The notes under the pieces: generated by a model
The model's input: the letters and a program-made list of their open reading frames with translations, nothing else
What the model was told of the DNA's origin: nothing
The model's database searches: none
DNA from: a virus
Taxonomy: Duplodnaviria > Heunggongvirae > Uroviricota > Caudoviricetes
IMG/VR virus record: IMGVR_UViG_2778261641_000008
Strand: one strand, 5' to 3'
DNA: 28,322 nt
Shown: positions 5,788-25,030 of the stretch, piece after piece
Position numbering within the stretch: the stretch's first letter is position 1
How the letters are laid out: each line of letters opens with the position of its first letter
Made by a program: the position numbers and the translations under genes

Positions 5788-5944
5788 CTGTTCCCTCCCT
5801 GTGCGGCATGGTCGCATGTGCGTGCGGAGGGGGTTACTGCTTTTTGTTGTCGCCGTGGCGGGAGAATAGCGCAGGGGTGAGATTACGCGCGTGGTGGGTG
5901 ATGATTGTTGCTGAATCATTTAACGGATACAAGGGGCTGAAGCT

Positions 5945-7129: not shown

Positions 7130-7641
7130 TGGCTGTACCAAAACATCTTCGCTTTTTTACGTTGTTTGTGGATGGTGAAAACGAAGTGGGTAAAGTGACA
7201 TCCGTCACGCCGCCCAAACTGACGCGCAAAACCGACAGCTATCGTGGTGGTGGCATGATGGGGGCGGTAAGTATTGATCTCGGTCTGGACGACTCCGCGC
7301 TTGATGCGAGTTTTGTTATGGGGGGCGCTGTTCGTGCGCTGTTCCTTAAATATGGCGGCACGATTGACGGCACGCTGCTGCGTTTTGCGGGTGAATACTA
7401 CACCGATGCAGAAAGCGATCTGTATGAAATCGAGATGCGCGGACGTGTGACGGAAATTGATATGGGGGAAGCCAAACAGGGCGAAGCCACATCACACACT
7501 TACGCTGTCAAAAACACCTACTACAAGCTGAGCGTTAACGATCGCCCGCTGTGGGAAATCGACCTGTTGAACCACATCTACCGGAAGGACGGCAAGGACA
7601 TTGTGCCTGACCGTATCCGTTCCGCGCTTGGGCTTGGCTGA
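7129..7641 (+). CDS. FII: Tail tube protein (P2 FII)
   Basis: 170 aa; SVTPPKLTRKTDSYRGGGM...RFAGEY...EIDMGEAKQGE matches my recollection of P2 FII. Confidence 0.9.
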   Translation: MAVPKHLRFFTLFVDGENEVGKVTSVTPPKLTRKTDSYRGGGMMGAVSIDLGLDDSALDASFVMGGAVRALFLKYGGTIDGTLLRFAGEYYTDAESDLYEIEMRGRVTEIDMGEAKQGEATSHTYAVKNTYYKLSVNDRPLWEIDLLNHIYRKDGKDIVPDRIRSALGLG

Positions 7642-7696
7642 TAAGTAATATGCAGGCGGCGCAGTGCGTCGCCTCTGACTGAAAAGGAGACAACTG

Positions 7697-8071
7697 ATGA
7701 AAGACATCGATACTGAAACCCGGAATAACACCGTGGCGGATGATGTGACGGCAGGTGAGGATATGGCTGTCGAACGTGGCGTAAAACTGACCCGACCAAT
7801 TGAGCGTGGTGGCGAAAAAATCACGTATGTGGAGATCACCGGGGCTATTGAGCAGGCTGGATCCCTGCGTGGTCTGTCGCTGTCTGATGTGCTGAATCTG
7901 AAAGCGGATACCATGTTCACGCTGTTGCCTCGCGTGACCTCGCCACGACTGGATGAAGTGATGATTAAAAAAATGTCGTCACGCGATTTTATTCAGTTGT
8001 GCGCTGTGGCTGTAAATTTTATGAGCGAGCCAGACTCTGGCGCGAAGAGCGTGCAGGAGACGGCAGCGTAA
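7697..8071 (+). CDS. E: Tail assembly chaperone (P2 E)
   Basis: 124-aa ORF between tail tube and tape measure, with an overlapping -1 frame ORF downstream. Confidence 0.75.
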   Translation: MKDIDTETRNNTVADDVTAGEDMAVERGVKLTRPIERGGEKITYVEITGAIEQAGSLRGLSLSDVLNLKADTMFTLLPRVTSPRLDEVMIKKMSSRDFIQLCAVAVNFMSEPDSGAKSVQETAA

Positions 8072-8235
8072 TCACCCTGGTGTGCTTTGAGCACATCGAA
8101 GATCTGGTGGCGGATATTGCCGCCATTTTTAACTGGTCGCCCGCCGAAATCTTCATGATGACGCCCGGCGAAGTGGTTAGCTGGCGCGAGCGGGCGGCAC
8201 TTCGCAGCGGGAATGCAGATAATGAAGACTCTTGA
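8017..8235 (+). CDS. E' extension reached by programmed -1 frameshift from E
   Basis: The -1 frame is open from 7969 to the stop at 8233-8235. An in-frame X_XXY_YYZ heptamer A_AAT_TTT lies at 8014-8020. The post-shift reading FYERARLWREE matches the track ORF 7999-8235. Confidence 0.55.
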   Translation, partial: FYERARLWREERAGDGSVITLVCFEHIEDLVADIAAIFNWSPAEIFMMTPGEVVSWRERAALRSGNADNEDS

Positions 8236-11029
8236 TATCCGGGTCGCTTTCAGCGCCGTTGACAGGCTGACCCGGCCTGCCGAAAACGCCCGCCGCCTGA
8301 TGGGGCAGTTTGGTGACTCCATCCAGCGAACGCAGGGGGCGCTCAAAAATCTCGAGCGTCAGGCGCGTTCATTTGAGCGCGCCCGTGACGCTGTCAGTAA
8401 AGCGGATGCGGGCATCGTGAAAGCACGACGCCAGCTTAACGCCCTTAATCAGTTACAACGCACGGGTACAGTGCTCAGCGAAAAACAACAAAAGCTGATG
8501 CAGCAGTTAAGCACCCGGCTTGAACGCCTGAATGAATCGCGCACACGGGAAATTCAAAAAATGCGGGAGCTTGGCGGAGAGCTGAAACGCCACGGCATTT
8601 CCCTGACAGGCAGCGATAACACCATCCAGCAGGCCATCAGACGCACCGAACAGTACAACAACCAGCTTGAACGCGAACGGCAGGCGCTTGCGCGTGTAAC
8701 GCGGGCGCGTGAGCGGTATTCGCGCGCGCAGGAAACAGCGGGAAAACTGAAAACAGGTGGTGCACTGGCAATTGGTGCGGCAGCGGCGGGCGGCTATGCT
8801 GCCGGGCGTTTTTTGCAGCCTGCGATCGGGTTCGGCAAAGAGATGTCCCGCGTTCAGGCACTGACGCGAATCGACAAAAACAGCCCGCAGTTTAAGGCGC
8901 TGCGTGAGCAGGCGTTAAAACTTGGCTCTGAAACACAGTTTACTGCGAGTGATGCCGCCAGTGGGCAGAGCTTTCTGGCAATGGCTGGTTTTACTCCGCA
9001 GGCCATTCAGGCCGCATTGCCCGGTGTTCTTAATATGGCGCTGGCAGGTGGCGTCGAACTCGGCGAGACGGCTGATATAGGCTCCAATATCCTCACACAG
9101 TTCAACCTGACAGCCGATCAAATGGACCGGGTTGGCGATACGCTGACAGCGGCATTCACCCGGACCAATACTGATTTACGCGCGCTGGGCGAAACCATGA
9201 AGTATACCGGTCCGGTTGCCGCAAAACTTGGTATCAGTCTTGAAGAAGCGGCAGCCATGGCCGGGATGCTTGCCAATAATGGTCTTCGCGGAAGCGATGC
9301 TGGTACGGCCATGCGCGCAAGTCTGTCCCGCCTTGCATCACCGCCAAAAGCTGCGGCTGATGCGCTGAAAGAGCTGGGAGTGTCAGTTGCTGACGCCAGA
9401 GGCAAAATGCGCCCGATGGAGGATGTGCTGCTTGATCTCTATAAGGCGACACAAAAATACGGACAGGTGGACCAGGTTTCCTTCTTCAAGGACATCGCCG
9501 GAGAAGAGGCGTTCGTTGGTTTGCAGACGCTTGTTGCGGCGGCTGGTTCAGGAGAGCTGCAAAAACTGACCAGAGAATTGCAGGGGGCAAGGGGAGAGGC
9601 CGATCGCGTCGCAAAAGTAATGGCCGATAATCTTGATGGGGACCTGAAAAATCTCGATAGCGCATGGGAAGGTCTTCGTATTCGCATCAGTGATCTGGTT
9701 GACGGTCCGCTGCGTTCTGTCACGCAGTGGCTCACGCGGGTGCTTGAAAAAAGCACCTCGCTGGCGCAGGCCCATCCGGTACTGACGCGCCAGCTACTGA
9801 TAGCAGGCGGTGCGTTGCTGGCAATGACTGCAACGATTGGCTCGTTGTCGCTGGTTATTGGGGTGCTTTACGGGAAGCTGGCCACCCTGCGTCTTGGTTT
9901 TGACATTCTTACCCGGTCAATGAATGTCGTCAGGGTGTTGCCTGCGCTGTGGGGAATGGTGACGGGTTCCGTTTCTTTGCTGGGAGGCGCTATCGGGGCG
10001 CTGTTCAGTCCGGTTGGTCTTATCGTGGCTGCGCTTGCCGGAGCTGCCGTTCTTATCTGGAAATACTGGGATCCCATCAGGGCATTTTTTGCCGGGGTGT
10101 TCGGCGGGATTATGGAAAGGCTGACCCCGTTGCGTGAAACCTTTGAACGGTTTGGTCCTGTTTTTGACGCAATCGGAAGCGGGATCAGCCAGGTGTTTAA
10201 CTGGTTTAAATCGCTGCTGTCACCGATGGAGTCCAGCAAGGAAACGCTGGATAAATGTACCAGTGCTGGCGAGATATTCGGTAACGTTCTTGGTGGCGCG
10301 CTACAGCTTGTTCTGACGCCTGCAAAAATGTTGCTGGATACGCTGGCGTGGATACTTGAAAAACTCGGTGTGCTTCCGGATGAAGCGGAAAGGGCGAGAA
10401 AGAAAATCGAAGACGCACAGCGTGCGGCCATTCTTCAGGACAAGGTTGCTCTGTTTCAGGGAGACATTGCGAAAATCAATCCGCCGAAGTCTGCGGAAAA
10501 TGGCAATGGCACCGGAGGCGATAAACCCAAAGACAACAAACCGCTCACAGACAGCAATACCGGCACGCTACGCAGACTCAGCAAAATTGCTGATAACACA
10601 GGTAAGCTGGTTGATGAGACAAAAAAACGTATTGGCCCCGGCGATATTGTCTTTAAGAACCTGCCCCGCGCACTTGCTGTTCGTGGGGAGTGGCAGGAGC
10701 GGAAGATTGCGCAGGTCAGTAAGCCTGCTTCCGCAATCAACATCACACCCGTGGTCCCGGCTCTGCTGCCTCCGGCGCTGGTCCCTGTTGTTGCGGCCAG
10801 CTCCCGCCCGGTGGCGGAGGCCATACGATCGCCAGTGGCATCAGTTCCTGCAACTTCCCGTAACCGGGAGCCTGTTGTCTCCGGATTTGGCGGTGAAATT
10901 CATGTTCATCTGCATAACGTTGTTACGCAGAATCCCCGCGAACTGGCGAAACTGGTCGGTGAAATGGTCAGGGCAGAGGTGGAACGGCGTGCTCGTGCCG
11001 GACGTGGCAGTTTTTACGATAAAGATTGA
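8213..11029 (+). CDS. T: Tail tape measure protein (P2 T)
   Basis: 938 aa; coiled-coil N-terminal half, Gly/Ala-rich hydrophobic middle segment, position between E/E' and U. Confidence 0.9.
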   Translation: MQIMKTLDIRVAFSAVDRLTRPAENARRLMGQFGDSIQRTQGALKNLERQARSFERARDAVSKADAGIVKARRQLNALNQLQRTGTVLSEKQQKLMQQLSTRLERLNESRTREIQKMRELGGELKRHGISLTGSDNTIQQAIRRTEQYNNQLERERQALARVTRARERYSRAQETAGKLKTGGALAIGAAAAGGYAAGRFLQPAIGFGKEMSRVQALTRIDKNSPQFKALREQALKLGSETQFTASDAASGQSFLAMAGFTPQAIQAALPGVLNMALAGGVELGETADIGSNILTQFNLTADQMDRVGDTLTAAFTRTNTDLRALGETMKYTGPVAAKLGISLEEAAAMAGMLANNGLRGSDAGTAMRASLSRLASPPKAAADALKELGVSVADARGKMRPMEDVLLDLYKATQKYGQVDQVSFFKDIAGEEAFVGLQTLVAAAGSGELQKLTRELQGARGEADRVAKVMADNLDGDLKNLDSAWEGLRIRISDLVDGPLRSVTQWLTRVLEKSTSLAQAHPVLTRQLLIAGGALLAMTATIGSLSLVIGVLYGKLATLRLGFDILTRSMNVVRVLPALWGMVTGSVSLLGGAIGALFSPVGLIVAALAGAAVLIWKYWDPIRAFFAGVFGGIMERLTPLRETFERFGPVFDAIGSGISQVFNWFKSLLSPMESSKETLDKCTSAGEIFGNVLGGALQLVLTPAKMLLDTLAWILEKLGVLPDEAERARKKIEDAQRAAILQDKVALFQGDIAKINPPKSAENGNGTGGDKPKDNKPLTDSNTGTLRRLSKIADNTGKLVDETKKRIGPGDIVFKNLPRALAVRGEWQERKIAQVSKPASAINITPVVPALLPPALVPVVAASSRPVAEAIRSPVASVPATSRNREPVVSGFGGEIHVHLHNVVTQNPRELAKLVGEMVRAEVERRARAGRGSFYDKD

Positions 11030-11035
11030 GGAGTC

Positions 11036-11530
11036 ATGGCCATGATGATGATCTACGGCATGTTTGTTTTTGAGCTGCGCACATTGCCGCATCAGCAGTT
11101 ACAGCAAAACAAAAGCTGGCGGCATGTGAAAAATGAACGCGTTAACCGTTCAGCAAGCTGGCAGTATATCGGCGCAGGTGATGATCGCATCGTGCTTTCC
11201 GGCGTGCTTTATCCTGAAATTACAGGTGGCGAAGTGTCGCTTTCGTTGCTGACCACACAGGCATATACAGGACGCCCCTGGCCTCTGATTGATGGTGTCG
11301 GGCAGATTTACGGCATGTATGTACTGACTGAAACGAATACGACCCGTTCCGAGTTTGATCGCTACGGTAAGGCGAAAAAGATAGAATTTTCACTGACCCT
11401 TGAACGCTGTGATGAGGATTTGCGGGAGCGTCTGCAATCCTCATCGTTCAGTGATATGCTGTCCGGCTTCAAAGATAAGGTCACATCATCCCTTAACAGC
11501 GCGGCCAGTTCAGTTAAAGGACTGTTCTGA
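11036..11530 (+). CDS. U: Tail protein gpU
   Basis: 164 aa; MAMMMIYGMFVFELRTLPHQ...WRH...GVLYPEITGG..WPL..G resembles P2 gpU. Confidence 0.85.
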   Translation: MAMMMIYGMFVFELRTLPHQQLQQNKSWRHVKNERVNRSASWQYIGAGDDRIVLSGVLYPEITGGEVSLSLLTTQAYTGRPWPLIDGVGQIYGMYVLTETNTTRSEFDRYGKAKKIEFSLTLERCDEDLRERLQSSSFSDMLSGFKDKVTSSLNSAASSVKGLF

Positions 11531-11626
11531 TTTTACATTGCCGCTAATACCCTCATATTGGGTAATGGGCGGCTTGTTGTTATATAATATATCGTAGGTC
11601 CTGATAAAACTGTTGAGGTTTCTACT

Positions 11627-12805
11627 TTATAAAGAATTGCTACTTTCTAATTCTGGGTTTCTGGATCTATTTTTACAACCTAAATCCGAGTGGTAATTCG
11701 GTATATCGTTTGTCAAATCTTGTTTGATAGCATTAATTAAGATCATTATGTCGAATTTATGCATATCGTCGCCCCCTTCAGACCTTAGATGTTCGGATGT
11801 GGTGAGTTGAGTCGCTAATTTGCTGTTTGGCCCCCACACAATATTATTTTCGAATTTTCCTTCATGCATTCTGTTATTATATATACAGTATTGTCTAATG
11901 TTTAATGCACTGGCTAAATGTACAATGGCAGTATCTACAGTTATAACAAAATCAGCATGGCGAACCAATGCAAATGAACATCCGGCATCAGAAAATGGAG
12001 ATAGAGACACATTATCCAATCCATTGTGATTAATCTGTTTTCCCATATTAAAAACTATTGTGTGATATCCCTTAAGGTTATTAAGGTAAGCTAGTACTTT
12101 GTTTATCTGTTCATCAGATAAGGTTCTGCTATTCTGAGAGCCATAAGGGTTAAATATAACTAATTTTTTGTTTTTCTTCCTGAATTCATTTGCAACAATA
12201 TTTGCTGGTTCATATATTTTGTTGTCAAAATTAAGCGCTGCAGCATAATTATTATTTTTTATCTTTAGTAAAGATAAAACTTTTTTCATTCTTTCAGATG
12301 TGTGAATGGAACGATTATCGATTATATTTGTATCAAAAATAGTTACGGCAGGATGATTAAAACAGATAGAGTGTTTAGGTCTAAGTAAATGTAGTGTTTG
12401 CAATCTGGTTATCGCTGTGTTATCAAAATTTGAGAAGTCAACAACAAGATCTACATTCAGTTTTTTTATCTTTGCTTTTAGTTCGTTAAATTTATTTTTC
12501 TCGTAAGATATAAAGGCATCCACGCCAACAATATCAGTAAAGAGGAATGATACTCTTGAAGGTGCTATCACATATACCACCATACCGGATTTTTGAAGTT
12601 GTTTAATAAACCCTGAGGTAACGATGCCGTCACCAATGGCTTGCATGTGCATGAAAATGCACACTGTTTTATAACTATCCGGCTGTAATGATGTTTTCCT
12701 TCTGTATCGCATTTTTAGAAATGCCAGTCTGGCCTTCGTCTTTATCTTTTTTGTTTTAATATTTCGCTGTCTGTTAAGCTGTTTTAATGATGAAATAACA
12801 TTCAT
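11627..12805 (-). CDS. Glycosyltransferase family 9 (LPS heptosyltransferase-like) protein; AT-rich cargo
   Basis: Track ORF is 11627-12865 with a TTG start; ATG candidates at 12835, 12805 and 12712, start unresolved. N-terminal KTVCIFMHMQAIGDGIV and C-terminal FVITVDTAIVHLASALN resemble the WaaC/WaaF-type signatures (SSMGDV and VDTGLSHLAAAL). Confidence 0.65.
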   Translation of the reverse strand: MNVISSLKQLNRQRNIKTKKIKTKARLAFLKMRYRRKTSLQPDSYKTVCIFMHMQAIGDGIVTSGFIKQLQKSGMVVYVIAPSRVSFLFTDIVGVDAFISYEKNKFNELKAKIKKLNVDLVVDFSNFDNTAITRLQTLHLLRPKHSICFNHPAVTIFDTNIIDNRSIHTSERMKKVLSLLKIKNNNYAAALNFDNKIYEPANIVANEFRKKNKKLVIFNPYGSQNSRTLSDEQINKVLAYLNNLKGYHTIVFNMGKQINHNGLDNVSLSPFSDAGCSFALVRHADFVITVDTAIVHLASALNIRQYCIYNNRMHEGKFENNIVWGPNSKLATQLTTSEHLRSEGGDDMHKFDIMILINAIKQDLTNDIPNYHSDLGCKNRSRNPELESSNSL

Positions 12806-12899
12806 AATGGTACCCTGAAATTCCAAATCACACATGTCATCCGAAATGAGCAGGGTACTATACAAAAAACTGGACTACAATGGTTTGAAATGAAAGCCT

Positions 12900-13499
12900 T
12901 TATGCTTGTTTACTCCTTGATTCCACTGGGGAAGCTGGCCACTCAATATCCGGTGCTCTTGATGTATCAACACGGTTCAGCAGCACTCGATACTTCTTCC
13001 AGGCTTCCAGCAACGAGATTTCTTCCTCCGTTGCGATTTCCAGATCTACAGCATCCTGAAGTGGCGCAATATGCTCACTGGCTACCTGCATCAGGCTGTT
13101 TTTTGTTTCTTCTGCCTCCCGGATCCGGAACAGTTTTTCTGCTTCCGTATCCTTCACCCAGGCTGTGCCGTTCCACTTCTGATATTCCCCTCCCGGCGAC
13201 AACCAGGTAACATTTTCCGGTAACGGACCGAGTTCAGAAATAAATAACGCGTCGCCGGAAGCCACGTCATAAACCGTTTTACCACGATGATCTTCAACGA
13301 GATGCCAAGACGCCCCATCACTGTTGAAAACAGCCACGAAGCCAGCTGGAATATCTGGCGGAGCAATATCAGTACTATTTGCAGGCAGACCTGTATGAGG
13401 TGGAATGTATGCATCACCTTCACCAATAAATTCATTGGTTCCGACCAGCAGATTATAAATTTTTATGGTTCGTGGTTGTTCACTCATTCTGAATGCCAT
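12900..13499 (-). CDS. G: Tail fibre assembly protein (P2 G / Tfa family)
   Basis: 199 aa immediately downstream of the tail-fibre fragment; sequence typical of tail-fibre assembly chaperones. Confidence 0.8.
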
Positions 13500-14611
13500 T
13501 ATGCAAGCCTCACAATATAGTTAAATGCGATGTTTTTTACGGTGTTTTCCGCGTTGCCATAAGCGGCAATGGTAATGGTGTGTGTGTGCGAACCAATAGC
13601 GAGCGTATGTGTATGCGCACCTATTGCTACTGTGTGAGTATGAGCTCCTGCGCTTAATACGCGATTACTTGCTGTCTTGCTTGTGTTAGTTGCATGCATT
13701 CCACCACCGGTACCGGGAGTTTCTGCGTATGCTGAAGTATTGTTGTAAGCAAAGTTGTGTGTATGTGCTCCGGTGTTATTTGTGGATTTAGTTCCGTAAT
13801 CAAACGACGATGTGGTTTTCGTCCCCAAATCCGTACTGGATGCGCTGGCGCTGTGGGTGTGCGATTTAATGCCGTCCTGTTCCTGAGACAATACGGCCCG
13901 ACCACTGGCAGGTTTGCCCTTAATCGTCCAGCCACGCATATCAGGGATCACGCCTGACGGATAAGCGACTGCAAGTTTCGGGTAGGCAGATTTGTCAAAA
14001 GTCTGCCCCTGCATCAGGGCATAACCAGACGGAACGGTATCCGATGGCCACGGGATTGGTGCGCCAGGCGGATAAAACTGCTCTGATGGCGTATAGAGTG
14101 AATAAACTGTACCGTCCGTTAACCCTTCCGGCTTATTAGCAGAATATGCTGGTGACGGATGAATCGTTACGCTGGCATTACTGGTATAATCCCATTGAAT
14201 ATTTACACCAGTCGCATAATTTCCGATTGCAACGTAAATATCGTAAGTATCACCAGATGTATTGACCCAGGCAAAATTTGTAAACCCTGCCGATGTGCGC
14301 TGCCATAAAGCACCAGTAATCCCCTTCGGATTACCATTACCTGCACGCAAAACAATTTCAGATATACCTGCCTGTTGAGGTGAACCGACGTTATATCCAG
14401 CGCCACCAATCAACGTAATTGAAACAACAGAACTCGCCTGTGGCATGGTTACCGTTGCTAATTTGAACCAACCAGCACCACCTCTGAATGACATTGTTGT
14501 TGAGTTAAGCGTACCAATATCTTTCGGTGTCAGTGTTATATCCGCTGAAAGCGCCTTACCATTCACCTTACGGGCAGAAGGTAACGGTTTTAAATTTTCG
14601 TGTTGTGGTAC
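13499..14611 (-). pseudogene. H: C-terminal fragment of tail fibre protein (P2 H-like); N-terminal part missing
   Basis: The frame opens at 14611 with no credible start (track start 14566 is GTG). C-terminal GAHTHT repeats ([24 protein letters not shown]). The upstream neighbour is truncated O rather than the baseplate genes. Confidence 0.7.
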
Positions 14612-14958
14612 TCATGCTTAATCGTCCGGATACTGGAATAGATTTTCTTGCCGTCAGCGACAAGCTGCTTCATGCGCTCGGTCGGTTCGATTTCTGCATA
14701 CAGCGCAGTACGTCCGGCCAGCGGGCCTTCCGTAATATCTTCCGTACTCAGCGCGGTGACATCGCCCATTGCGGAAAATTCGCTTGACGGGCATGGCGAG
14801 AGATAGTGCTCAACGTTCACGCGGGCAGCGTAAACATCCGGGTTGAAGTTCTCGGCGGCTTCACGCAGATGTACCGGGCTGATTTCGCGGCCATCAACAG
14901 TTGATCCGGAGACAGCCACGCGAAACTTTTTGCGGAATGTCTTTTTTTCATTAGCCAT
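14590..14958 (-). pseudogene. O: N-terminal fragment of capsid scaffold/protease gpO, about 122 of the roughly 280 aa expected
   Basis: MANEKKTFRKKFRVAVSGSTVDGREISPVHLREAAENFNPDVYAARVNVEHY parallels the P2 gpO N-terminus as I recall it. The ORF ends after KKIYSSI plus 12 unrelated residues, directly beside the tail-fibre fragment. Confidence 0.7.
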
Positions 14959-15112
14959 AGTTTTTGCCCCTCTGACTGGTTCTTCAGTCATGATGGCAAA
15001 GCGTAACAGGCTGATACAAAGGGCTTTTGTTGTAAGAAAACGGCCAGAACAGGGGGTTAAGGAGAACGGTTTCGCGCGCGGGTAATCTTCCTGTAATTAC
15101 TCAGGGGGAGCA

Positions 15113-16864
15113 ATGATTCAGGACGCTTTTGTGCGCCAGCGTGCGCGGCAACTTTACTGGCAGGGTTATCCGCCCGCAGAAATATCACGTCTGATGGGAA
15201 TAAACCCGAACACGATTTATGCGTGGAAAAAACGCGACCAGTGGGATGAAACGCCACCCGTGCAGCGTGTCACGCAGTCCATCGATGCGCGCCTCATCCA
15301 GCTTACTGAAAAACAGAATAAAACAGGCGGTGACTTTAAGGAAATAGACCTGCTGACCCGGCAGCTTAAAAAGCTGCATGATGGCCAGCCGGATGTGATG
15401 GCCGCAGGAAAGAAAGGCCGGGCGAAAAAACTCAAAAATCATTTCACGCCGGAACAGATTGCCGCACTGCGGGAAAAAATCATCAGCAGGCTGGAGTGGC
15501 ATCAGCGGGGCTGGTTTGACTCCCTGACACTTTGCAGGGAAGCCGGGATACGTAACAGGATGATCCTGAAATCCCGACAGATTGGGGCGACCTGGTATTT
15601 TGCACAGGAAGCTCTGCTGATGGCGCTGCGTGACGATGTGGCGCAACCTTACCAGCGTAACCAGATTTTTTTGTCTGCGTCGCGTCGTCAGGCGTTCCAG
15701 TTTAAAAGCATTATTCAGAAGGCCGCGGCTGAAGTTGATGTGGAGCTGAAAGGGGGCGATAAAATCATCCTCTCCAACGGCGCAGAGCTGCATTTTCTCG
15801 GCACTTCTGCTGCGTCGGCACAGTCCTATACGGGCAATTTTTATTTTGATGAATTTTTCTGGGTCAGTCGCTTTGCTGAACTGCGCAAGGTGGCTGGCGC
15901 TATGGCAACCCTCAGCGGACTGCGGCGCACCTACTTCTCCACGCCATCCACCGAAACGCACGAGGCATACGCCTACTGGAACGGCGACCGCTGGAACGAG
16001 AAAAAGGCCTCGCATAAACGCCAGCGTTTTTCTGTGGACAGGAAAACGCTGCATAACGGGCTTATCTGCCCTGACCGGACGTGGCGGCAAATTGTCACGC
16101 TGGAAGATGTGGTTAATCACGGCTGGAAACACACCGATATTGACGAAATCCGTGATGAAAACACCGAAGACGAGTTCCTCAATCTCTATATGTGTGAGTT
16201 TGTTCGCGAAGGGGAATCGGCATTTAACCTGAATATCCTGATTGGCTGCGGTGTTGACGGATACGACGACTGGAAAGACTGGAAACCTTTTGCTCCCCGC
16301 CCGATGGGGAATCGTCCGGTATGGATTGGGTATGACGCAAACGGCAGCAGTGGCAACGGCGACAGCGGCGCTGTGTCCGTGGTGGTTCCTCCGGCTGTTC
16401 CTGGTGGCCGTTTTCGAACGGTGGAGACGCGACGCGTTCAGGGGCTGGAGTTTGAAGAACAGGCCAGAGTCATTGAAGAGTTCACGTATCGTTACAACGT
16501 GGAACACATCGGCATTGATGTGACGGGCGGGAACGGGGAGGCTGTTTATCAGATAGTGAAACGGTTTTTCCCTGCTGCTATTCCGTACACCTTCACGCTG
16601 TCATCAAAACGGTCTCTGGTACTGAAAATGCTGCAAATAATGCGTGCCGGGCGGTGGGAATACGATCGCGCCGAACGCGAGCTGGTCGCGGCCTTTAACG
16701 CCGTGCGTAAGGTGAAAACACCGGGCGGCTTTATCACTTACGAAACGGACCGCGCGAGGGGGATCAGCCACGGCGACCTTGCGTGGGCAACCATGCTTGC
16801 TGTCATTAACGAACCGATTGGCGGCGAAGGAGAAAACGAGCGTTTCACGGTTATGGAGTTCTGA
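15113..16864 (+). CDS. P: Terminase large (ATPase) subunit, P2 gpP
   Basis: 583 aa; divergent from O and followed by the portal gene with an ATGA overlap, as in the P2 Q-P / O arrangement. Confidence 0.9.
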   Translation: MIQDAFVRQRARQLYWQGYPPAEISRLMGINPNTIYAWKKRDQWDETPPVQRVTQSIDARLIQLTEKQNKTGGDFKEIDLLTRQLKKLHDGQPDVMAAGKKGRAKKLKNHFTPEQIAALREKIISRLEWHQRGWFDSLTLCREAGIRNRMILKSRQIGATWYFAQEALLMALRDDVAQPYQRNQIFLSASRRQAFQFKSIIQKAAAEVDVELKGGDKIILSNGAELHFLGTSAASAQSYTGNFYFDEFFWVSRFAELRKVAGAMATLSGLRRTYFSTPSTETHEAYAYWNGDRWNEKKASHKRQRFSVDRKTLHNGLICPDRTWRQIVTLEDVVNHGWKHTDIDEIRDENTEDEFLNLYMCEFVREGESAFNLNILIGCGVDGYDDWKDWKPFAPRPMGNRPVWIGYDANGSSGNGDSGAVSVVVPPAVPGGRFRTVETRRVQGLEFEEQARVIEEFTYRYNVEHIGIDVTGGNGEAVYQIVKRFFPAAIPYTFTLSSKRSLVLKMLQIMRAGRWEYDRAERELVAAFNAVRKVKTPGGFITYETDRARGISHGDLAWATMLAVINEPIGGEGENERFTVMEF

Positions 16865-17910
16865 TGAGCAGAAAAAATAAAAAAGTGCGCATGAGTTCAC
16901 GCATTGATCTCGCTGATGCGCTCAGGAAAGAATCATCGCTCAGTGCATTCACATTTGATGGTCCTTATCGCCTGACCGGGCATGACCTGCTGGACAATAT
17001 GTACTGTGCTGATAACGGGCGGTGGTATGAAACCCCGGTGGACTGGTACGGTCTGGCAAGAGCAGCCCGGCAAACGTCCTGGCATCAGTCTGCGCTTTAC
17101 TTTAAGCGCAATGTATTACTCGGTTGCTACATCCCGCACCCGCTGCTTTCCCGGCAGGATTTCTCGGCGCTGGCGCTGGACTGGTTTGTGTTCGGTAACG
17201 CATTCCTTGAGCTTCGAAGCAATATGCTCGGCGAACCGCTTAAATTACGGCACGCACTGGCGAAATACATGCGACGCGGAAGCGATCTTGAATCATGGTG
17301 GTATGTGCAGGATGGCAAGGACGCGTTTCAGTTTCGCCCTGGCAAAGTGTGCCACCTGATGAATCCGGACATTAACCAGGAAATTTACGGCATGCCGGAA
17401 TATCTTGGCGCATTACTCTCGGCCAGCCTGTCTCATTCGGCGGACATGTTCAGAAAACTGTATTACGACAATGGATCCCACGCCGGGTGCATCATCTACA
17501 TCGGTGCAGCGCAGGTAAACCGCGAAAGCATGGACTCCCTGAAAGAAACGTTACAGGGTGCGCGTGGTAGTGGTGCGTTTAAAAACGTGCTCATCCATGC
17601 GCCCAACGGGGGCAAAGAGGGGGTGCAAATTTTGCCGTTCCAGCAGATCACCGCAAAGGATGAGTTCATGAATGTTAAGGCGGCATCCCGTGATGATGTG
17701 CTGGCTGCGCACCGCGTTCCGCCGCAACTGATGGGGGCGATGCCGGGCGAAAAAAGTGCGTTTGGTGATGTGGAGAAGGCCGCGCGGGTTTACGCAATTA
17801 ACGAGCTGATGCCCGTCATGGAGGCCATGAAGCACATCAATGACTGGCTTGGCGAAGAGGTGATCCGCTTTAACCCTTACGCACTGTTAGACACCCAGTC
17901 CACATCCTGA
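16864..17910 (+). CDS. Q: Portal protein, P2 gpQ
   Basis: 348 aa; position and size as for P2 Q; transcribed toward the expected cos end. Confidence 0.9.
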   Translation: MSRKNKKVRMSSRIDLADALRKESSLSAFTFDGPYRLTGHDLLDNMYCADNGRWYETPVDWYGLARAARQTSWHQSALYFKRNVLLGCYIPHPLLSRQDFSALALDWFVFGNAFLELRSNMLGEPLKLRHALAKYMRRGSDLESWWYVQDGKDAFQFRPGKVCHLMNPDINQEIYGMPEYLGALLSASLSHSADMFRKLYYDNGSHAGCIIYIGAAQVNRESMDSLKETLQGARGSGAFKNVLIHAPNGGKEGVQILPFQQITAKDEFMNVKAASRDDVLAAHRVPPQLMGAMPGEKSAFGDVEKAARVYAINELMPVMEAMKHINDWLGEEVIRFNPYALLDTQSTS

Positions 17911-17937
17911 CGCGCTTCGCTTGTCTGCTGCTTCGCC

Positions 17938-17960
17938 GGGGCATAAAAAATTTATGCCCC
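17938..17960. other. 10-bp-stem hairpin (GGGGCATAAA aaa TTTATGCCCC) just after the portal gene, in the presumed cos-proximal region
   Basis: Read directly from the sequence; no U-tract follows. Confidence 0.6.
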
Positions 17961-18363
17961 GACTCTCCAGCTCCTGTATCAGTCAGATAATTTCACGACG
18001 CCTTCCAGTTTATCGCCACCATCGACAGTCAGACTCTTACGCAATCCCACCGCGTTGACTGCATGTTCTCGCCGTCTCAGTGCGATTTTGACGGCCTTAC
18101 CTTTCACCCCATCAAATCAAAAGCCCTCACGTCTTTTTCACGCTCAGCGTGAGAAATACAACCATTCTGTTGTATCTCTGCGACATCGTTCAAGGAATGC
18201 TATTTACCCCCTGAAACGCGGGCTGTTCCCCCGTCACCTGCGCGCAGAAAAAACGCGTTTTTTTGTGCACGTACGGATCCTTGACGGATCCAGCCACCAC
18301 GCGGGCCGGAAGTACAAAAAGTCGTTCAAAAAAATTGTGCAAACTTGTGCACTATCGTGCAAA

Positions 18364-18388
18364 CAAAAAAAGCGCCTTATCGGCGCTT
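18364..18388 (-). terminator. Rho-independent terminator for the 18397-18666 gene
   Basis: On the minus strand, stem AAGCGCC/GGCGCTT with a 5-nt loop is followed by T7 (complement of A-run 18364-18370). Confidence 0.65.
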
Positions 18389-18396
18389 CAAAAGTA

Positions 18397-18666
18397 TCAA
18401 TTGTTGCTGTGTATTAATCGCCAACCACGAACATATGCTTCATAGGCATCTCTGTGCCTTACAGTTCCAGCCTGGCTAAACGGAATGTTAGCTAAAACTA
18501 AATCATTCTGAGCCATAGCGCGTCCTTCAAGCGCATCTTTTATGCCTAGCTCAAAAGCACAGGCAGCGCATTTGTGCCGACCTTCTTGTCCTTGATATTC
18601 AGGGAGAGACAGAAATGTTGGATTATAACGATGAGGGTTCTTGCAAATACCTGTTTTAGCCCGCAC
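18397..18666 (-). CDS. Hypothetical small protein (89 aa) with its own terminator
   Basis: ORF is followed at once by a terminator. Contains Cys/His residues (CKNPH...HKCAAC). Not recognised; the start codon is uncertain. Confidence 0.45.
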   Translation of the reverse strand: MRAKTGICKNPHRYNPTFLSLPEYQGQEGRHKCAACAFELGIKDALEGRAMAQNDLVLANIPFSQAGTVRHRDAYEAYVRGWRLIHSNN

Positions 18667-18785
18667 TTTATTTACCTCATAGGAAAAATATGCGTGCCTT
18701 TACAGAGGTGCGTGTAAGCAATAAAATATACGACGCACATTTTGATTTACTTCGGAAGGCACGCATATCAGGTTAAGTGAGTCCG

Positions 18786-18815
18786 ACCGAGTTTTACGCC
18801 CCAATAGTTGCTGCT
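18786..18815. repeat. 12-bp-stem perfect hairpin (ACGCCCCAATAG ttgctg CTATTGGGGCGT) followed by TTT
   Basis: Read directly from the sequence; in the noncoding stretch between the 89-aa gene and parR. Confidence 0.6.
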
Positions 18816-19030
18816 ATTGGGGCGTTTTGCATGGACAATGCCGCGCAATTATCTTGTCGCTCACAATGCGAACGATCTTACAAAAAGGCACATTACTGTC
18901 AAGATAATTGATCGTTTTAATCGATAGATAATAGACAATCTATTTGTTTAACAGATCGATTATTGAAGTAAGTGTGCCAAGTGGAATGATACTGTCTCTA
19001 TAAACGTGAGCATTTTTCGCGCAGATGCTT

Positions 19031-19342
19031 TTACTCAGGAAATAACGCCCGGATATTCCCAGCCATCTGGCTGGTTATCTTAGCCACTGGTGCAGACTGT
19101 GCTTCAAACTTTTTTGAGCTGATTTGTGTCACAGGTAACATCTCATCATCAGCCCATGCGGCCAGTCGGTAAGCCTCTGCCGGATTCGTCTTCAGAAGTG
19201 CCAGCCCGGCCAGAAAAGCCACGCGTTGGCCGCTTTTGCGGGCTTCTGGTGTAAGGCTGTCCAGCCAGGCGCATGCTTCTCCTTCGTTCTTGACGGCAGC
19301 TGGCTTCAGATAGAAACTTATCCGTCTGGTTGGTGTTGTCAT
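19031..19342 (-). CDS. parR: ParR-like ribbon-helix-helix centromere-binding adaptor
   Basis: ATG at 19342 with AAGGAG 6 nt upstream, 5 nt after the parM stop. N-terminus MTTPTRRISFYLKPAAV...RVAFLAGLAL resembles my recollection of plasmid R1 ParR. Confidence 0.65.
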   Translation of the reverse strand: MTTPTRRISFYLKPAAVKNEGEACAWLDSLTPEARKSGQRVAFLAGLALLKTNPAEAYRLAAWADDEMLPVTQISSKKFEAQSAPVAKITSQMAGNIRALFPE

Positions 19343-19346
19343 TGGT

Positions 19347-20306
19347 TTACTCCTTGTCCATTGCGTACAGCCCATTAACCAGAGCAAACTGTGGCACCCC
19401 GTCCGCGATGAAAGTCGCATTAACTCCGCAGGCTTCGCGGATAGCGGGTGCCACAATCTCCGCCCCGCCACCGACAACCATCACCCGCCCGTAACCCGAA
19501 AAACCCGCCAGCGCGCGGATCACGCGTTGTTTCAGTGTTTCTTCCTTTTCACGAATAACCACCATCAGGCTGTCGTAATGCGCGTCATTGTGGATGTGCT
19601 GGCGCAGCCAGGCTTCATCATGGCGATGTTCGATAATGGTATTGGCGATGTGGTGACTGGTACGCATACCGTTAGTGGCCATCACCGACAGTACGGCATC
19701 GGCCATCAGGGAAACGCCTACGTGTGGATCGCAAAACACCTGGCTGATACCTGCCAGTTGTCCCTGAACCTTTGCCACATCCAGCGTGGTTCCGCCTAAA
19801 TCCACAATCAGCAGGGATTCAAACGGACTCATGTCAGCCAGTGCTTTAAAGCCAGCCGGAATGGATTCAGGCATAACCCGTACGTTACGGATAGTGAATG
19901 CTTCGCCGTTCTGGTACTCCACCGGGCGCATGACGTTCGCTTTTTTGCGGTTGATGTTGGCCATGTCCGGCTGTGCGTTTGTGTCGAAATATTCGCTCAG
20001 TGGCAGGGTGACAACCACATCCACTTCCTGTGGTGTGATGCCTGATTTGACCAGCGCGTGATGAATGGCAATGACATTCACATCGCTGTACTGGTATTGC
20101 GTGTCGGTCGTCTGGACAAAGCGATCGCTGACCGGATCAAAACCATAGCGCACGCCATCAAGCATGTAGTTCGCGGGCTGCGTGCCACCGAACGGCGCAG
20201 ACCATTCCGACTTGAAGCTGTTCGGGCTGATGGCGTTGCGGCGTTCGCCGTTCTCAGTCCATGCCAGCTTGATGTTGGTGGAGCCGTCATCGATACAAAT
20301 TTTCAT
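19347..20306 (-). CDS. parM: ParM/StbA actin-like segregation ATPase
   Basis: 319 aa with IDDGSTNIKL, ISPNSFK, YSDVNVIAIHHAL, DLGGTTLD, VVGGGAE and LVNGLY, the characteristic ParM motifs in the right order. Confidence 0.85.
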   Translation of the reverse strand: MKICIDDGSTNIKLAWTENGERRNAISPNSFKSEWSAPFGGTQPANYMLDGVRYGFDPVSDRFVQTTDTQYQYSDVNVIAIHHALVKSGITPQEVDVVVTLPLSEYFDTNAQPDMANINRKKANVMRPVEYQNGEAFTIRNVRVMPESIPAGFKALADMSPFESLLIVDLGGTTLDVAKVQGQLAGISQVFCDPHVGVSLMADAVLSVMATNGMRTSHHIANTIIEHRHDEAWLRQHIHNDAHYDSLMVVIREKEETLKQRVIRALAGFSGYGRVMVVGGGAEIVAPAIREACGVNATFIADGVPQFALVNGLYAMDKE

Positions 20307-20338
20307 GTCGCTTTTCCTTATGTTGATTAATTAATCGC

Positions 20339-20373
20339 TTACGGGATTCTGAAATCCCGTTTTTGCCTGTTTT
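20339..20373. repeat. Copy 1 of a 35-bp hairpin element (TTACGGGATTCTGAAATCCCGT + T-rich tail), between A stop and parM start
   Basis: 8-bp stem ACGGGATT/AATCCCGT followed by TTTTTGCCTGTTTT. A perfect 12-bp palindrome GATTAATTAATC at 20325-20336 is adjacent. Confidence 0.8.
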
Positions 20374-20382
20374 ATGCGCGCT

Positions 20383-23205
20383 TCATATATCGCGGCGCGT
20401 TTTTTGCTCATTTACGGGATTTGTGAATCCCGTTTCTGTCTGTTTTTTGTTTCCACTGGTCAGGCCACCCCGCAGCAGGTCTGCTTTGCGGCGGGCGTGT
20501 TCAGTGGTTTCACTGATTCTCTGTGCGTGCTCTGCGTCGCGGATGGCGCGCAGCATGTCAGAAAGCACGGTAACGGGTGTTTTCATGGTGTTCTGGTCCT
20601 GCTGAAGTGTGGATGCCAGGCGTGCGGCGGCTTCGGGGTCTGATGCCCCCAGCTGTTCCAGATAGCTGGCGACCGGGTTATGGCGGATCTCCGTGCTGCT
20701 TACGCCGTGGTTACGGCTCAGGCGCTGCCAGAGCTGCGTGATCCGGCTGTCCGGTCGGGTATCCGGTTTGCGTACAATTTCAAATCCCTGCGGTGCAATG
20801 ATGCTGCCGTCGACGTACAGACTGCCGCCCCGTAACAGGTGCTGCATCTGCTGTTCACCGATATGCAGGCCGAGAGATTCAGCAGACTCCCGCCATTCTT
20901 TAGCGAGTAACTCGTGGTTATCAGGCAAAGGCCGTGGCTGTTTGCGGCTCTGTGTCCAGTTCTGCATTTCATCACTGCTGTTTTTTGCCTGTTTGTCACG
21001 CAGCGAACGCATCAGCGCCCGGCGTTCGTGCCGTTTCAGTGAGCGCATCCATTCATTCACGTCAACGCCGTCAGGAAGCTGCGGCCACGGTGCTGGCCGT
21101 TCTTCCAGCTGTTCTGTCCCGTTGTTGTCCGTTTCCTGTACACGGGGACAGTTATTGCCACGAGTCCAAGGGGCGGCAGGGCCGCCCTGAAGGTCAAAAC
21201 CATTTTCGCGGGCGCTGTCTTCCGCTTCCGGTTTACGTCTTACCAGCTTCCAGTTATCCGGATGTGTGCACACACGGGAAGACTCCCCGATGAGCGGTGA
21301 CCAGATCCCGTAAATCTGTACGCTCTGTTCGCCGTAATCGTTCAGCTCATCTGCGAGGTCGTAGGCGGTGCGAATCAGGTAGTCTTTGCGTGGAACAAGT
21401 ACGCCGCCCTGTTTTTCAATGTAGGAGGCAAAACACCCGGCATCAGCGGCAGCGAGCACTGCATCCATTGCGTCATCCTTCAGTCGTTGCGGGCCTTCCG
21501 GGTTGCGTGCCATCTGGCTGGCAAGGCGGCGCAGTTCACGCCACACCTGACGGGAGGGGATGCCAAAGAACTGGAACTGGCGGACCCGGTGAAGGCGCGC
21601 CCAGCCGATGGCGCGCTCCACGCTCTCGGCCATTGATTTTCCGGTTTCGTGGTCAACGCGTGGCTTGCCCGTTTTCGGGTCGATACCATCCACGGCGCGG
21701 CTGTCCAGGTTCTTTCCGATGTAGGTGGCGATGTAGCTGGTTGGCGTGCCTTTTGAGCCGTCGACGTACTCCGCCTTAAAACGCGGAGTTATGTCATCGC
21801 CCAGCTCGTGGCGGTCTTCCTGAATGGCAATATCGCAGACGTGGGACACGATGGTTTCAATCTCGTCCGGATGTGCAAAGACCATCATATGCCAGTGCAC
21901 AGTGCCGTCATGGTGAGGCTCCACCGTGCGGATGCCATACCAGCGAAGACCGTCGCGGTTCAGTTTTTTGCGGACCGCCGCAAAAAACGTGTTAACCAGG
22001 TAATCGCTGGAGTCGCGCATGGTGGCCCCGTTCCATTTGGGATTCGGATGACCGTTCTCTGTTGTGGCGTGGTATTTTGACGGGCAGGTGACAGTCAGAA
22101 ACACCGCTCTGTCGCCACGGGCTTCGGCCAGAAGTTCCAGTCCCTTCATGGTGGCCATCATTTCTGCCTTACGGTGAACCGGGTTACTTACTCCCGCGTA
22201 ATATACCGTCTCGAGATCAATCGTGAACCCGTCTTCATTTTCCAGCATGAAACTTTTCAGGAAATCGCGTGTTTTCTCGCGCTGTGCGCGAAACTCGCTT
22301 AACGCGTCCTGGCTCAGATAGGGTGATGTTTTTCTGGAAACCAGACAGGCGGCGCGGAGTTGTTCTTCTCTCCACTCGCAACGTAACAGCCACAGTTTGC
22401 GTTTCCACCATTCCGCACAGGTCAGGCGAAGGATTGCGCCCGGCAGCAGCTCCGTGTCCGGTTCGTTCCTCCGGTCTTTGTCTGTTGTCAGTGCGTCATA
22501 ATGTGGAGGCATGGCGTGCAGGTGTAACGCCATGCGGGCCAGCATCTGATACGCCTTCAGCGTTACATCCATGGTCAGTTCGCCATCAGTAGCGCCAAAG
22601 CCATCGCAGAGTTTTTCGAAGGTGCTGCTGAACATCGCCGCCGTCATGGTGGCCAGCGTCTGTATCTGGTGTTTGTTGAGCTGCGGCAGGTAAAGCAAAT
22701 CGTCCAGGCGTTCGCGTCCGGCAAGGGAGCGATAACCCGGTGTCAGCCAGCGGTGATCGGTGCGGTCCAGACGTTCGAATATTTTGCGCAGGGTTCCGCG
22801 CGCGTAGCGTTCCGCCTGCCAGCTCTTTTTGCCTTTCTGACGATCGGCTTCCTGCTTCTTGCGCAGGAAGGAGAGGTGGCGAATAAGCGGATCGCGCAGA
22901 TAGGACGGCAGCAGGCGCAGCGAGGCCATGGCTTCATCCACCGCGCCGCGTGCCTGTTTTCTGGCGTCTCCTGCCAGTGTGATGGTTTTGTCCTGTTTTT
23001 CCTGTGCGTCCAGGCTTTTATTAATCAGGTTGCCCAGCGGCGTGGCGGAGAACGCCGCATCAGCCATTTCCTGGCGGCGCTCGTTCTCTACCCGGTAGGC
23101 ATCCAGCCAGGAGGAAAGCGCGGATTCAGGAGCGGAGATCCCCGTTCCTTCACGCCCCACTGCGTGGCGCGGTTGTTGCCAGTCCCTGATGTACTCTGCC
23201 GTCAT
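20383..23205 (-). CDS. A: Replication initiation endonuclease (P2 A, rolling-circle HUH family)
   Basis: 940 aa with the HUH-type motif TVHWHMMVFAHP; position downstream of the early operon as in P2. Confidence 0.85.
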   Translation of the reverse strand: MTAEYIRDWQQPRHAVGREGTGISAPESALSSWLDAYRVENERRQEMADAAFSATPLGNLINKSLDAQEKQDKTITLAGDARKQARGAVDEAMASLRLLPSYLRDPLIRHLSFLRKKQEADRQKGKKSWQAERYARGTLRKIFERLDRTDHRWLTPGYRSLAGRERLDDLLYLPQLNKHQIQTLATMTAAMFSSTFEKLCDGFGATDGELTMDVTLKAYQMLARMALHLHAMPPHYDALTTDKDRRNEPDTELLPGAILRLTCAEWWKRKLWLLRCEWREEQLRAACLVSRKTSPYLSQDALSEFRAQREKTRDFLKSFMLENEDGFTIDLETVYYAGVSNPVHRKAEMMATMKGLELLAEARGDRAVFLTVTCPSKYHATTENGHPNPKWNGATMRDSSDYLVNTFFAAVRKKLNRDGLRWYGIRTVEPHHDGTVHWHMMVFAHPDEIETIVSHVCDIAIQEDRHELGDDITPRFKAEYVDGSKGTPTSYIATYIGKNLDSRAVDGIDPKTGKPRVDHETGKSMAESVERAIGWARLHRVRQFQFFGIPSRQVWRELRRLASQMARNPEGPQRLKDDAMDAVLAAADAGCFASYIEKQGGVLVPRKDYLIRTAYDLADELNDYGEQSVQIYGIWSPLIGESSRVCTHPDNWKLVRRKPEAEDSARENGFDLQGGPAAPWTRGNNCPRVQETDNNGTEQLEERPAPWPQLPDGVDVNEWMRSLKRHERRALMRSLRDKQAKNSSDEMQNWTQSRKQPRPLPDNHELLAKEWRESAESLGLHIGEQQMQHLLRGGSLYVDGSIIAPQGFEIVRKPDTRPDSRITQLWQRLSRNHGVSSTEIRHNPVASYLEQLGASDPEAAARLASTLQQDQNTMKTPVTVLSDMLRAIRDAEHAQRISETTEHARRKADLLRGGLTSGNKKQTETGFTNPVNEQKTRRDI
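20412..20446. repeat. Copy 2 of the same hairpin element, inside the last codons of gene A
   Basis: TTACGGGATTTGTGAATCCCGTTTCTGTCTGTTTT, about 30 of 35 positions identical to copy 1, spaced 73 bp; it encodes the TGFTNPV residues of the A C-terminus. Confidence 0.8.
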
Positions 23206-23211
23206 AGTGAT

Positions 23212-23577
23212 TTACTTCGTCATGCCATTCAGGGTGTCGCGGCAGACTGTAGCCAGCCGCTGAATTTCCAGCACGGTGTCTTCTGTGTCGGCATGGCGAT
23301 GTGTGATGCGGATGCTGTCGGCAATCACATCGACGATTGCAGAGGATGGGCGCTGGTAAATGCCAATAACGGACGGGGTGCCACCTTCAATGCGGTAAAG
23401 CCTGTAATTTCCCTCGTGGCTGTCAATCATGTAGCGACCATCAATAACAATCTTTCCGTCAGCGAGCTGCGGTACAGGCAGGGATTTCAGGTACATGTCA
23501 TAACGATCACGCACGCGAGCGGCAAGATCACGCTCTGTGTTGAGCAGGTATTCAAGAAAGTCGTTGGCGAGAATCAT
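23212..23577 (-). CDS. Hypothetical early-operon protein (121 aa)
   Basis: ORF immediately upstream of A on the same strand. Confidence 0.55.
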   Translation of the reverse strand: MILANDFLEYLLNTERDLAARVRDRYDMYLKSLPVPQLADGKIVIDGRYMIDSHEGNYRLYRIEGGTPSVIGIYQRPSSAIVDVIADSIRITHRHADTEDTVLEIQRLATVCRDTLNGMTK

Positions 23578-23649
23578 TGCGGCAATCCTCTTGTTACAGA
23601 TGTGCGAAGGCCTCCCGCCGCAAGGTGCAGGAAAGGCCCGGAACAGGAA

Positions 23650-23880: not shown

Positions 23881-24057
23881 GGTGTGGCCCCTTGTGTAGT
23901 AAGTTGTGAAAACTCACCATCCAGAGCTGCGAAACTGTGGGTGGCGAGACGTACGAGGTTCGCAGTACCGGCTACACAAGAACCCGGCCCGACCGAAGTC
24001 GGCCCCGTACGCCCCGCCATAATTCTGACGCGAAAAAAACGTGGCAATACAGTACGC

Positions 24058-24944: not shown

Positions 24945-25030
24945 TACGCCTCCTTGGCGTGTGCGAATACCTCCGCGAATGCGGATTGTTTTTACATTTT
25001 CTTATTTAATCTGTGGTTTTATTTGCTCTG

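Follow-up and report, generated by a model that had tools for sequence, protein, structure and literature searches.

A probable defective P88-like prophage of Escherichia coli with two short-homology deletions, one ending at a one-sided hot spot in the tail-fibre gene

We examined a 28,322-nucleotide (nt) stretch of DNA (IMG/VR virus record IMGVR_UViG_2778261641_000008, hereafter the window), which very probably carries a defective relative of phage P88 with two illegitimate deletions between short homologies (Δ1 and Δ2), the second of which ends, on the side of the retained tail-fibre module, at a nucleotide-precise, one-sided hot spot. On the comparisons given below, the element is assigned to the P88-like prophages (Peduoviridae, Xuanwuvirus) of the Escherichia coli pdxB–flk locus. 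As a defective prophage it is ordinary, one more decaying prophage; the recurrent directional breakpoint is the part worth following up.

Two deletions flank a retained island

The window follows P88 (Xuanwuvirus P88, NC_026014) and the prophages of E. coli TH9F11 and A8 collinearly, interrupted only by two gaps on either side of an island of 51 nt. On one side of the island, the minus-strand open reading frame (ORF) at 14590–14958 encodes a 122-codon truncated gpO (Pfam Phage_GPO, profile positions 2–103 of 268, E = 1e-40). A sequence-only reading of the same DNA had described a gpO-like frame of about this length, and the alignment bears it out: codons 1–110 of 278 are the native 5' part of the scaffold/protease gene O (14629–14958, minus strand, 99.1% amino acid identity to P88 gp25 residues 1–110), while in translation the remaining 12 codons and TAA stop (14590–14628, minus strand) form a frameshifted tail that is read through the island. 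The alignment of this truncated gene (O') to P88 stops at P88 nt 14635.

The island itself (14582–14632, minus strand, 45–51 nt depending on how the shared bases at its ends are counted) comprises the 3'-terminal 15 nt of baseplate gene I with the stop codon (14618–14632), a 2-nt spacer, and the ATG (14615–14613) and codons 1–11 of the tail-fibre gene H. It is identical at 51 of 51 positions to TH9F11 (locus L001, 16578–16628) and to a further locus (L009), and 96% identical to P88 22545–22595. A foreign or insertion sequence (IS) origin of the 45-nt filler was considered and rejected, as no such match was found and the filler consists of the end of I and the start of H.

Both gaps coincide with short homologies of which one copy is retained, as in microhomology-mediated deletion. 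Comparison with P88 and TH9F11 places the Δ1 junction at 14629–14632, where TATC on the gene strand is common to O nt 327–330 and to the 3' end of gene I; the deletion would have used this tetranucleotide to link O codon 110 with the five final codons of I. It measures 7,913 bp in P88 coordinates (~8.1 kb relative to E. coli A8) and took O codons 111–278, N, M, L, X, holin, endolysin, LysB/C, R, S, V, W, J, and nearly all of I. The Δ2 junction lies at the TA of 14582–14583, where 995 bp are absent relative to the TH9F11 H gene (L001 15585–16579). Here H nt 32–34 would have been joined to codon ~343 via the common TA, with the loss of H codons 12–343 and of the reading frame. The gene-strand sequence across both junctions reads …AAGAAAATCTATTCCAG-TATC-CGGACGATTAAGC-ATGAGTACCACAACACGAAAATTTAAAACCGT-TA-CCTTCTGCCCGTAAGGTGAATGG…, that is, O until TATC (codon 110 of 278), the island from TATC to TA, and H from codon ~343 onward. 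Microhomology-mediated illegitimate deletion would account for both junctions.

Two pieces of the fibre gene remain. The first is a short ORF from the native fibre start (14568–14615, minus strand), with 15 codons (11 native plus TFCP) and a TAA stop at 14570–14568, which is offset in frame from the second piece. The latter is the C-terminal fibre module (13499–14581, minus strand, within the open frame 13499–14583), an Stf-like segment of ~360 codons (~344–703 of the 703-codon TH9F11-type H) with Pfam Collar and Phage_fiber (fibre repeat) matches. It is 99.9% identical at the nucleotide level to L001 14500–15584, within a TH9F11 match of 99.9% over 3,054 nt that also includes the tail-fibre assembly gene tfa and a family-9 glycosyltransferase (GT9) gene, and ~91–94% identical to stf and tfa of lambdoid phages. 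The earlier description of this frame (13499–14566, minus strand) as the C-terminus of a fibre only was correct. Its claim that a start was wanting needs amending: the native H ATG is kept at 14615 but is frame-shifted, so that no native start is in frame, and the only in-frame candidates are GTG 14566 and ATG 14446, with no evident ribosome-binding site.

Upstream of O', the divergent O/P late-promoter region is retained (14992–15112, placed by analogy with the P2 pO/pP annotation and collinear with P88). O', the H remnant, tfa, and GT9 would thus now lie downstream of the O promoter. A scan of the window for the Ogr-box pattern TGT-N12-ACA found no enrichment, and promoter and terminator scans were uninformative.

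Gene loss and the age of the deletions

Searches with P2 and P88 proteins (tblastn) returned no homologue in the window of N, M, L, X, Y, K, holin, endolysin, LysB/C, R, S, V, W, J, or I, in agreement with the earlier statement that the capsid, small terminase, head completion, lysis, and baseplate genes are absent. In P2, whose gene roles we took from established genetics and from the annotation of the P2 record, these genes are essential for the capsid, DNA packaging, tail completion, the baseplate, and lysis. Because essential P2-type genes are missing, the remnant is predicted to be unable to build capsids or baseplates, to form particles, or to lyse its host alone, which upholds what had been proposed from the sequence; with no baseplate, it would not yield a tailocin either. 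The reading of the deletion scar as the mark of a defective prophage is likewise sustained, but P2 was not the appropriate reference: the window proteins are only 31%–54% identical to those of P2 (tblastn), and P88 is the proper comparison.

The loss of particle and lysis genes together with the truncation of O and H is what defines a defective prophage, and other classes of phage-derived element fit less well. An R-type tailocin would keep the baseplate, the lysis genes, and the fibre N-terminus, all of which are deleted here. A P4-like satellite or one resembling a phage-inducible chromosomal island (PICI) does not match either, since the element carries part of the P88 gene set in collinear order, sheath, tube, portal, and terminase included, and satellite hallmark domains are absent. 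Its content comprises int, repressor, Cox, A, ParMR, P, Q, sheath, tube, tape measure, U, D, Ogr, the C-terminal fibre module with its chaperone, and low-GC (guanine-cytosine) cargo. All retained counterparts of P88 proteins are full length and 75%–100% identical (Q 348/348, P 583/583, FI, FII, E', T, U, D, A 940/940, ParM). For annotation purposes, the locus can be described as a defective P88-like prophage in which O and H are pseudogenes.

Searches of 5,426 complete E. coli genomes, IMG/VR, and the Joint Genome Institute (JGI) metagenomes returned neither junction. The exact 122-amino-acid O' protein was found only on NCBI assembly GCA_002513175.1 (NLVW01000001.1) and in the Logan assembly of SRR3957065, where 20.4 kb and 10.9 kb, respectively, match the window at 100% identity. 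The deletion pair thus appears to be real and strain-specific, and the deletions are probably recent. Several points weigh against this account. Recency rests solely on the intact ORFs and the rarity of the junctions, and the junction evidence consists of assembled sequence. The searches for missing genes covered the window, and P88-like prophages reach three copies per genome; a second one in the source genome might complement the defects in trans. Moreover, no intermediate with Δ1 alone or Δ2 alone was found in IMG/VR or the JGI metagenomes, so the two deletions may have arisen in either order or in one complex event.

A recurrent, one-sided deletion endpoint at the start of the fibre module

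The module-side end of Δ2 is not random: it is a nucleotide-precise, one-sided hot spot (hereafter hot spot X) that was used by at least 21 other independent deletions. In the window it lies at 14564–14583 (plus strand, …CACCTTACGGGCAGAAGG/TA, the slash marking the exchange point), and the same endpoint occurs at 15582 in ET791 (L008) and at ~4151 in each of two further loci (L011 and L012). The distal end of Δ2 reads …GCAGAAGG/TA (14581–14583). Sequence features at the site are GGTACC and a CCTTCTGCCCGTAAGG block. The H'::Q' junction of the P88-like prophage in ET791 coincides to the nucleotide with the module-side end of Δ2, as do the terminase'::stf' junctions of RM10410 (DLP12) and I4 (Qin). 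We found no description in the literature of a deletion hot spot in fibre genes.

A scan of IMG/VR with the module-side 23-mer CCATTCACCTTACGGGCAGAAGG recovered 127 loci, of which 103 continue with the parental sequence TACCCGACC… and 24, in 20 classes, turn to unrelated sequence within 0–6 nt. About one-fifth of the module copies in IMG/VR therefore sit at a deletion junction at X, always on the same side. Together with the window and ET791, this gives 22 junction classes, distributed over lambdoid and P2-like prophages. To remove ascertainment bias, we re-sampled from an anchor placed 400 nt inside the module. In this sample, 23 of 124 loci (19 classes) diverge at +1 to +7, compared with ~20 classes over the other ~1,600 nt, several of which are shared natural alleles or repeat-number variants. 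The per-nucleotide enrichment at X is roughly two orders of magnitude. Endpoints peak after GGTA and spread from 0 to +6.

The breakpoint is directional. All of the 58–61 loci that carry the N-terminal side of X keep the parental module and none lacks it, while every junction at X keeps the Stf-C/Tfa module and loses upstream late genes; most of the resulting fusions are out of frame. Identifiable partners are all upstream late genes in simple-deletion orientation (nu1, A, portal, tape measure, L, J, lom, the Stf N-terminal domain, P88-like H or I, and Q). The unrearranged partner sequence was found for 18 classes, or 19 counting the window. TA is present at the exchange point of the partner in 14 of these 19, and the other five have CA or TG, with products that carry either the dinucleotide of X or that of the partner. 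Flanking identity at the junctions ranges from 0 to 8 nt (for example GGTACCCG, GGTACC, and GGTAC). Single classes are rare, at 11 and 6 of 5,426 genomes for two of them; because each class is rare, the deletion events at X must be recurrent and recent.

Besides X, a lambda-type site in J (ccggTA/CATGC, or ccggTA/CATGCTGCACGG; for example in L036, L136, and L245) served three times as the upstream endpoint among 143 loci. It also contains GTAC and may be a second, weaker hot spot.

Possible mechanisms at hot spot X

It is possible, if somewhat doubtful, that a sequence-specific enzyme acting at …GCAGAAGG-TA-CC… produced Δ2 and the 21 other classes, in place of random illegitimate recombination. 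Such an enzyme could be a recombinase of the serine type that performs a conservative 2-bp TA exchange with quasi-sites, a site-specific nuclease, or a protein that protects a DNA end; any of these would refine the account of a defective prophage with two short-homology deletions, not replace it. The concentration of 19 distinct continuations within 7 nt in the unbiased sample, the strict one-sidedness, the partners consistently in deletion orientation, and the individual rarity of classes, which implies recurrent and recent events, all favour an active process, and the TA at most partner sites, with mixed products where the partner dinucleotide is a one-base variant, fits a staggered 2-bp exchange. 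However, some classes share as many as 8 flanking nt, which fits ordinary microhomology joining as well, and the analysis turned up no candidate enzyme. The data are equally compatible with a fixed or protected DNA end at …GGTA and its joining by microhomology.

In its most specific form, which on balance we consider unlikely, the proposal is that a dedicated and directional breaking or strand-exchange activity with a 2-bp TA overlap targets …CACCTTACGGGCAGAAGG/TA/CC… at the start of Stf-type modules and deletes 0.3 to ~20 kb of upstream late genes. This activity would reach back as far as nu1 or the portal gene, in lambdoid and P2-family prophages, and would always spare the fibre-C/Tfa module. 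If it exists, it would be a previously undescribed route of prophage disarmament that keeps a possibly useful receptor-binding module.

The DNA invertases that act on tail-fibre genes offer the closest known parallel. Like X, the gix, cix, and pix sites and the PinQ-driven inversion of the e14 P segment lie in tail-fibre genes and involve a 2-bp exchange core, and there is a similarity between the module edge CCTTCTGCCC and the outer part of pix, CCTTCTCCCA. Unlike those sites, X has no AAACC-NN-GGTTT core and no inverted partner, the exchange falls at the outer edge of the pix-like stretch, and only deletions result. An invertase site at X was accordingly rejected on the basis of motif scans, inverted-repeat searches, and the comparison with e14 pix. 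The AAACC-NN-GGTTT core of the 26-bp crossover site was not found in the window, L001, L008, or L011, and the sole copy in L012 lies ~1.2 kb from X, outside the fibre gene and not beside pinQ; the same scan recovered the genuine invertase sites of P88, 503025, and e14. A pin-like gene stands beside the module in 5 of 11 junction loci and in 11 of 42 parental loci, which is no clear association. Nor was a DNA hairpin at X significant (z-scores 0.3–0.6). Chi, a lambda cosN-like pseudo-site, and the KpnI site (GGTACC) were compared by eye with consensus sequences, and none fits the distribution of ends.

Should an enzyme prove responsible, it would explain why E. coli prophages have repeatedly lost killing and structural genes while the fibre and its chaperone were kept, and would provide a tractable deletion assay. 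If the effect is instead a passive property of the sequence, X would be among the sharpest natural deletion hot spots in bacterial genomes.

Selection, helper mobilisation, and other explanations

Quite unlikely, in our assessment, is that the element is a domesticated or parasitic one maintained by selection, with the fibre C-terminus and Tfa, GT9, and cargo benefiting the host through receptor masking or surface modification, or with packaging by a P88-like helper. The sequence-only reading had proposed host benefit or a helper, an idea that is possible but that nothing found here supports. At the junction loci, the reading frame of the module has stayed intact in 22 of 23 cases and that of tfa in 16 of 16, and the GT9-tfa-fibre module survives a stepwise decay of the prophage at the ihfA–btuC locus (TH9F11 and ET791). 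There is also a precedent in the cryptic prophage e14, of which a chimeric Stf fragment blocks adsorption of phage T2 (PMC12529663). GT9 and an ORF resembling HEPN proteins are low-GC morons at variable positions, and GT9, which is heptosyltransferase-like, looks like a surface-modifying moron. However, the fibre fragment has the unfavourable start context described above, the cargo proteins (including the HEPN-like ORF at 3535–4557) had no match in PADLOC, and the junctions are private to one strain. Moreover, the sheath, tube, tape measure, and portal, which are useless with no baseplate, are equally intact, which points to recency over selection. Selection alone cannot yield a spike 7 nt wide between sparse regions at X. 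For the window itself, a recent, still-neutral deletion would explain the data without selection. Retention of the module may be advantageous, although this is conjecture.

For mobilisation by a helper, the stretch that follows the portal gene, which is the place of the cos site in P2, is kept and collinear with P88. From this collinearity cos may have been retained, probably within 17911–19030. The P2 cos 19-mer does not occur in the window, and the P88 cos site was not located.

An assembly artefact is very improbable. Copies of the fibre module recur within E. coli genomes and a Logan contig breaks inside it, but two differently built assemblies (NCBI and Logan, with contigs of 345 kb and 21 kb), although possibly made from the same reads, cross both junctions identically; the junction sequence is unique, homologies of 2–4 nt cannot cause de Bruijn mis-joins, and analogous junctions at X occur in the finished genomes of ET791, RM10410, and I4. 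Equally hard to credit is the single deletion, fusing O directly to the fibre C-terminus, that had been proposed from the sequence: the two frames are only 24 nt apart at low resolution, but alignment with P2-family relatives (P88, A8, and TH9F11) placed two breakpoints (14629–14632 and 14582–14583) with two different short homologies, and the 51-nt stretch between the frames is the end of I and the start of H of relatives in native order and orientation.

Relatives and exchange of the fibre module

The preferred reading, a defective P88-like prophage with two short-homology deletions, is framed by the following relatives. P88 shares the gene order of the window, including FI–U on the opposite strand, ParMR, A, Q/P, and D/hok. 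Relative to P88, the window is without P88 nt ~14636–22544 (O' through I) and most of H, has another C-terminal fibre module, carries GT9 in place of the invertible cassette and invertase, and differs in the int/C/cox region and the attachment site. The pdxB–flk prophages of E. coli A8 and enterotoxigenic E. coli (ETEC) 503025 have the same flanks (flk, TagO, and a zinc-ribbon gene), and hok-ogr-HEPN-D is 99.9% identical. Unlike the window, these two keep O through I, so that the comparison at the same locus recovers all of the missing genes; A8 has an IS3 in H and 503025 has the invertase cassette.

The P88-like prophage at ihfA–btuC in TH9F11 and ET791 is, like that of the window, defective by internal deletions, and the ET791 deletion uses hot spot X; its attachment site, integrase, and deletions are different. 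Its decay is nested: TH9F11 has an N'::I' junction, and ET791 additionally has H'::Q' and a deletion that brings truncated A against an early gene for a DNA-binding protein. Throughout, the sheath-to-fibre module, GT9, ParMR, and int are kept. Window positions 11000–14583 (U-GT9-tfa-fibre-C) are 99.6%–100% identical to TH9F11 (L001) and ET791 (L008) in every 500-nt bin, whereas the neighbouring tail genes are 75%–98% identical to those of the ihfA–btuC prophage. This difference argues for recent exchange of the module between prophages at different loci.

In the cryptic lambdoid prophages of RM10410 (DLP12) and I4 (Qin), the fibre module follows a truncated terminase gene or noh, with the joint at the nucleotides used in the window (…AAGG/TA). 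Unlike the prophage of the window, these are not of the P2 family and have much larger deletions. The DLP12 and Qin junctions of K-12 itself are without the X motif.

Identity, locus, and gene content of the prophage

Hallmarks of the P2 family are divergent Q-P and O late head genes, P2-type sheath, tube, E, T, U, and D, Ogr, the rolling-circle initiator gpA, Cox, C, and a tyrosine integrase. The window matched the Pfam families Phage_GPO, Terminase_6N/6C, Phage_portal, Phage_sheath, Phage_GPD, Phage_GPA, Phage_Cox, and Phage_integrase. Within the family, its collinear blocks are 92%–97% identical to P88 at the nucleotide level, which places it in Xuanwuvirus. P88 itself is a mitomycin-inducible, plaque-forming phage (PMC5285337). 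The left flank of the window is 99.9% identical to E. coli chromosomes that have a prophage between pdxB and flk. The position of FI–U on the strand opposite to D and H-G was read at first as an inversion that had broken the prophage, but this was rejected, as it is the native P88 order: the divergent D/FI junction is 98.5% identical to that of P88 and is present in 1,373 of 5,426 complete E. coli genomes.

Host genes occupy positions 1–2490 (flk, TagO, and a zinc-ribbon gene). TagO (VasI-like and associated with type VI secretion) and the zinc-ribbon gene form a low-GC (36%) segment between flk and the prophage end (1260–2490, minus strand). These are followed by a hok/gef toxin gene (2755–2892, minus strand), ogr, and the HEPN-like ORF (340 amino acids, 3535–4557, plus strand, GC 34%), whose match to HEPN (RiboL-PSP) is weak and sub-threshold. 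The slot between ogr and D that it occupies is variable and holds other genes in relatives, such as a gene for a PIN-domain protein in RM8426. The retained tail genes (4678–11530) comprise D on the minus strand and FI, FII, E, E', T, and U on the plus strand (5945–11530), all full length and with 75%–99% amino acid identity to P88 gp44–gp51 over all or nearly all of their length.

GT9 (11627–12865, minus strand, Pfam Glyco_transf_9, GC 33%) is followed by an intact tfa, a G-like tail-fibre assembly gene (12900–13499, minus strand, Pfam Caudo_TAP, E = 9e-44). The GT9 slot corresponds to the position of the invertible fibre cassette and invertase in P88, and RM8426 has a serine O-acetyltransferase there. 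Searches of the cargo proteins against NCBIfam gave nothing above curated cut-offs, and GT9 had only sub-threshold heptosyltransferase matches.

Beyond O', the large terminase P (583 amino acids) and portal Q (348 amino acids) genes lie at 15113–17910 on the plus strand; according to Pfam and P88 comparisons, both are full length, with 97.6% and 99.4% amino acid identity to P88 gp24 and gp23, respectively. The 1.1 kb between the portal gene and ParR (17911–19030) hold only small unannotated ORFs. Their content varies between relatives, with PIN and helix-turn-helix (HTH) genes in TH9F11 and a hypothetical gene and an Ead-like gene in A8, and this stretch is a second variable cargo slot. The early and lysogeny region (19031–28322), delimited by Pfam and by tblastn with P88 and P2 proteins, contains ParR/ParM-like genes, A (940 amino acids), small early genes, cox, C, and int, the last of which starts at 27303 and runs off the end of the window. 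The ParM/ParR-like genes (19031–20306, minus strand) and hok/gef are plasmid-like maintenance functions in an integrated phage, as they are in P88.

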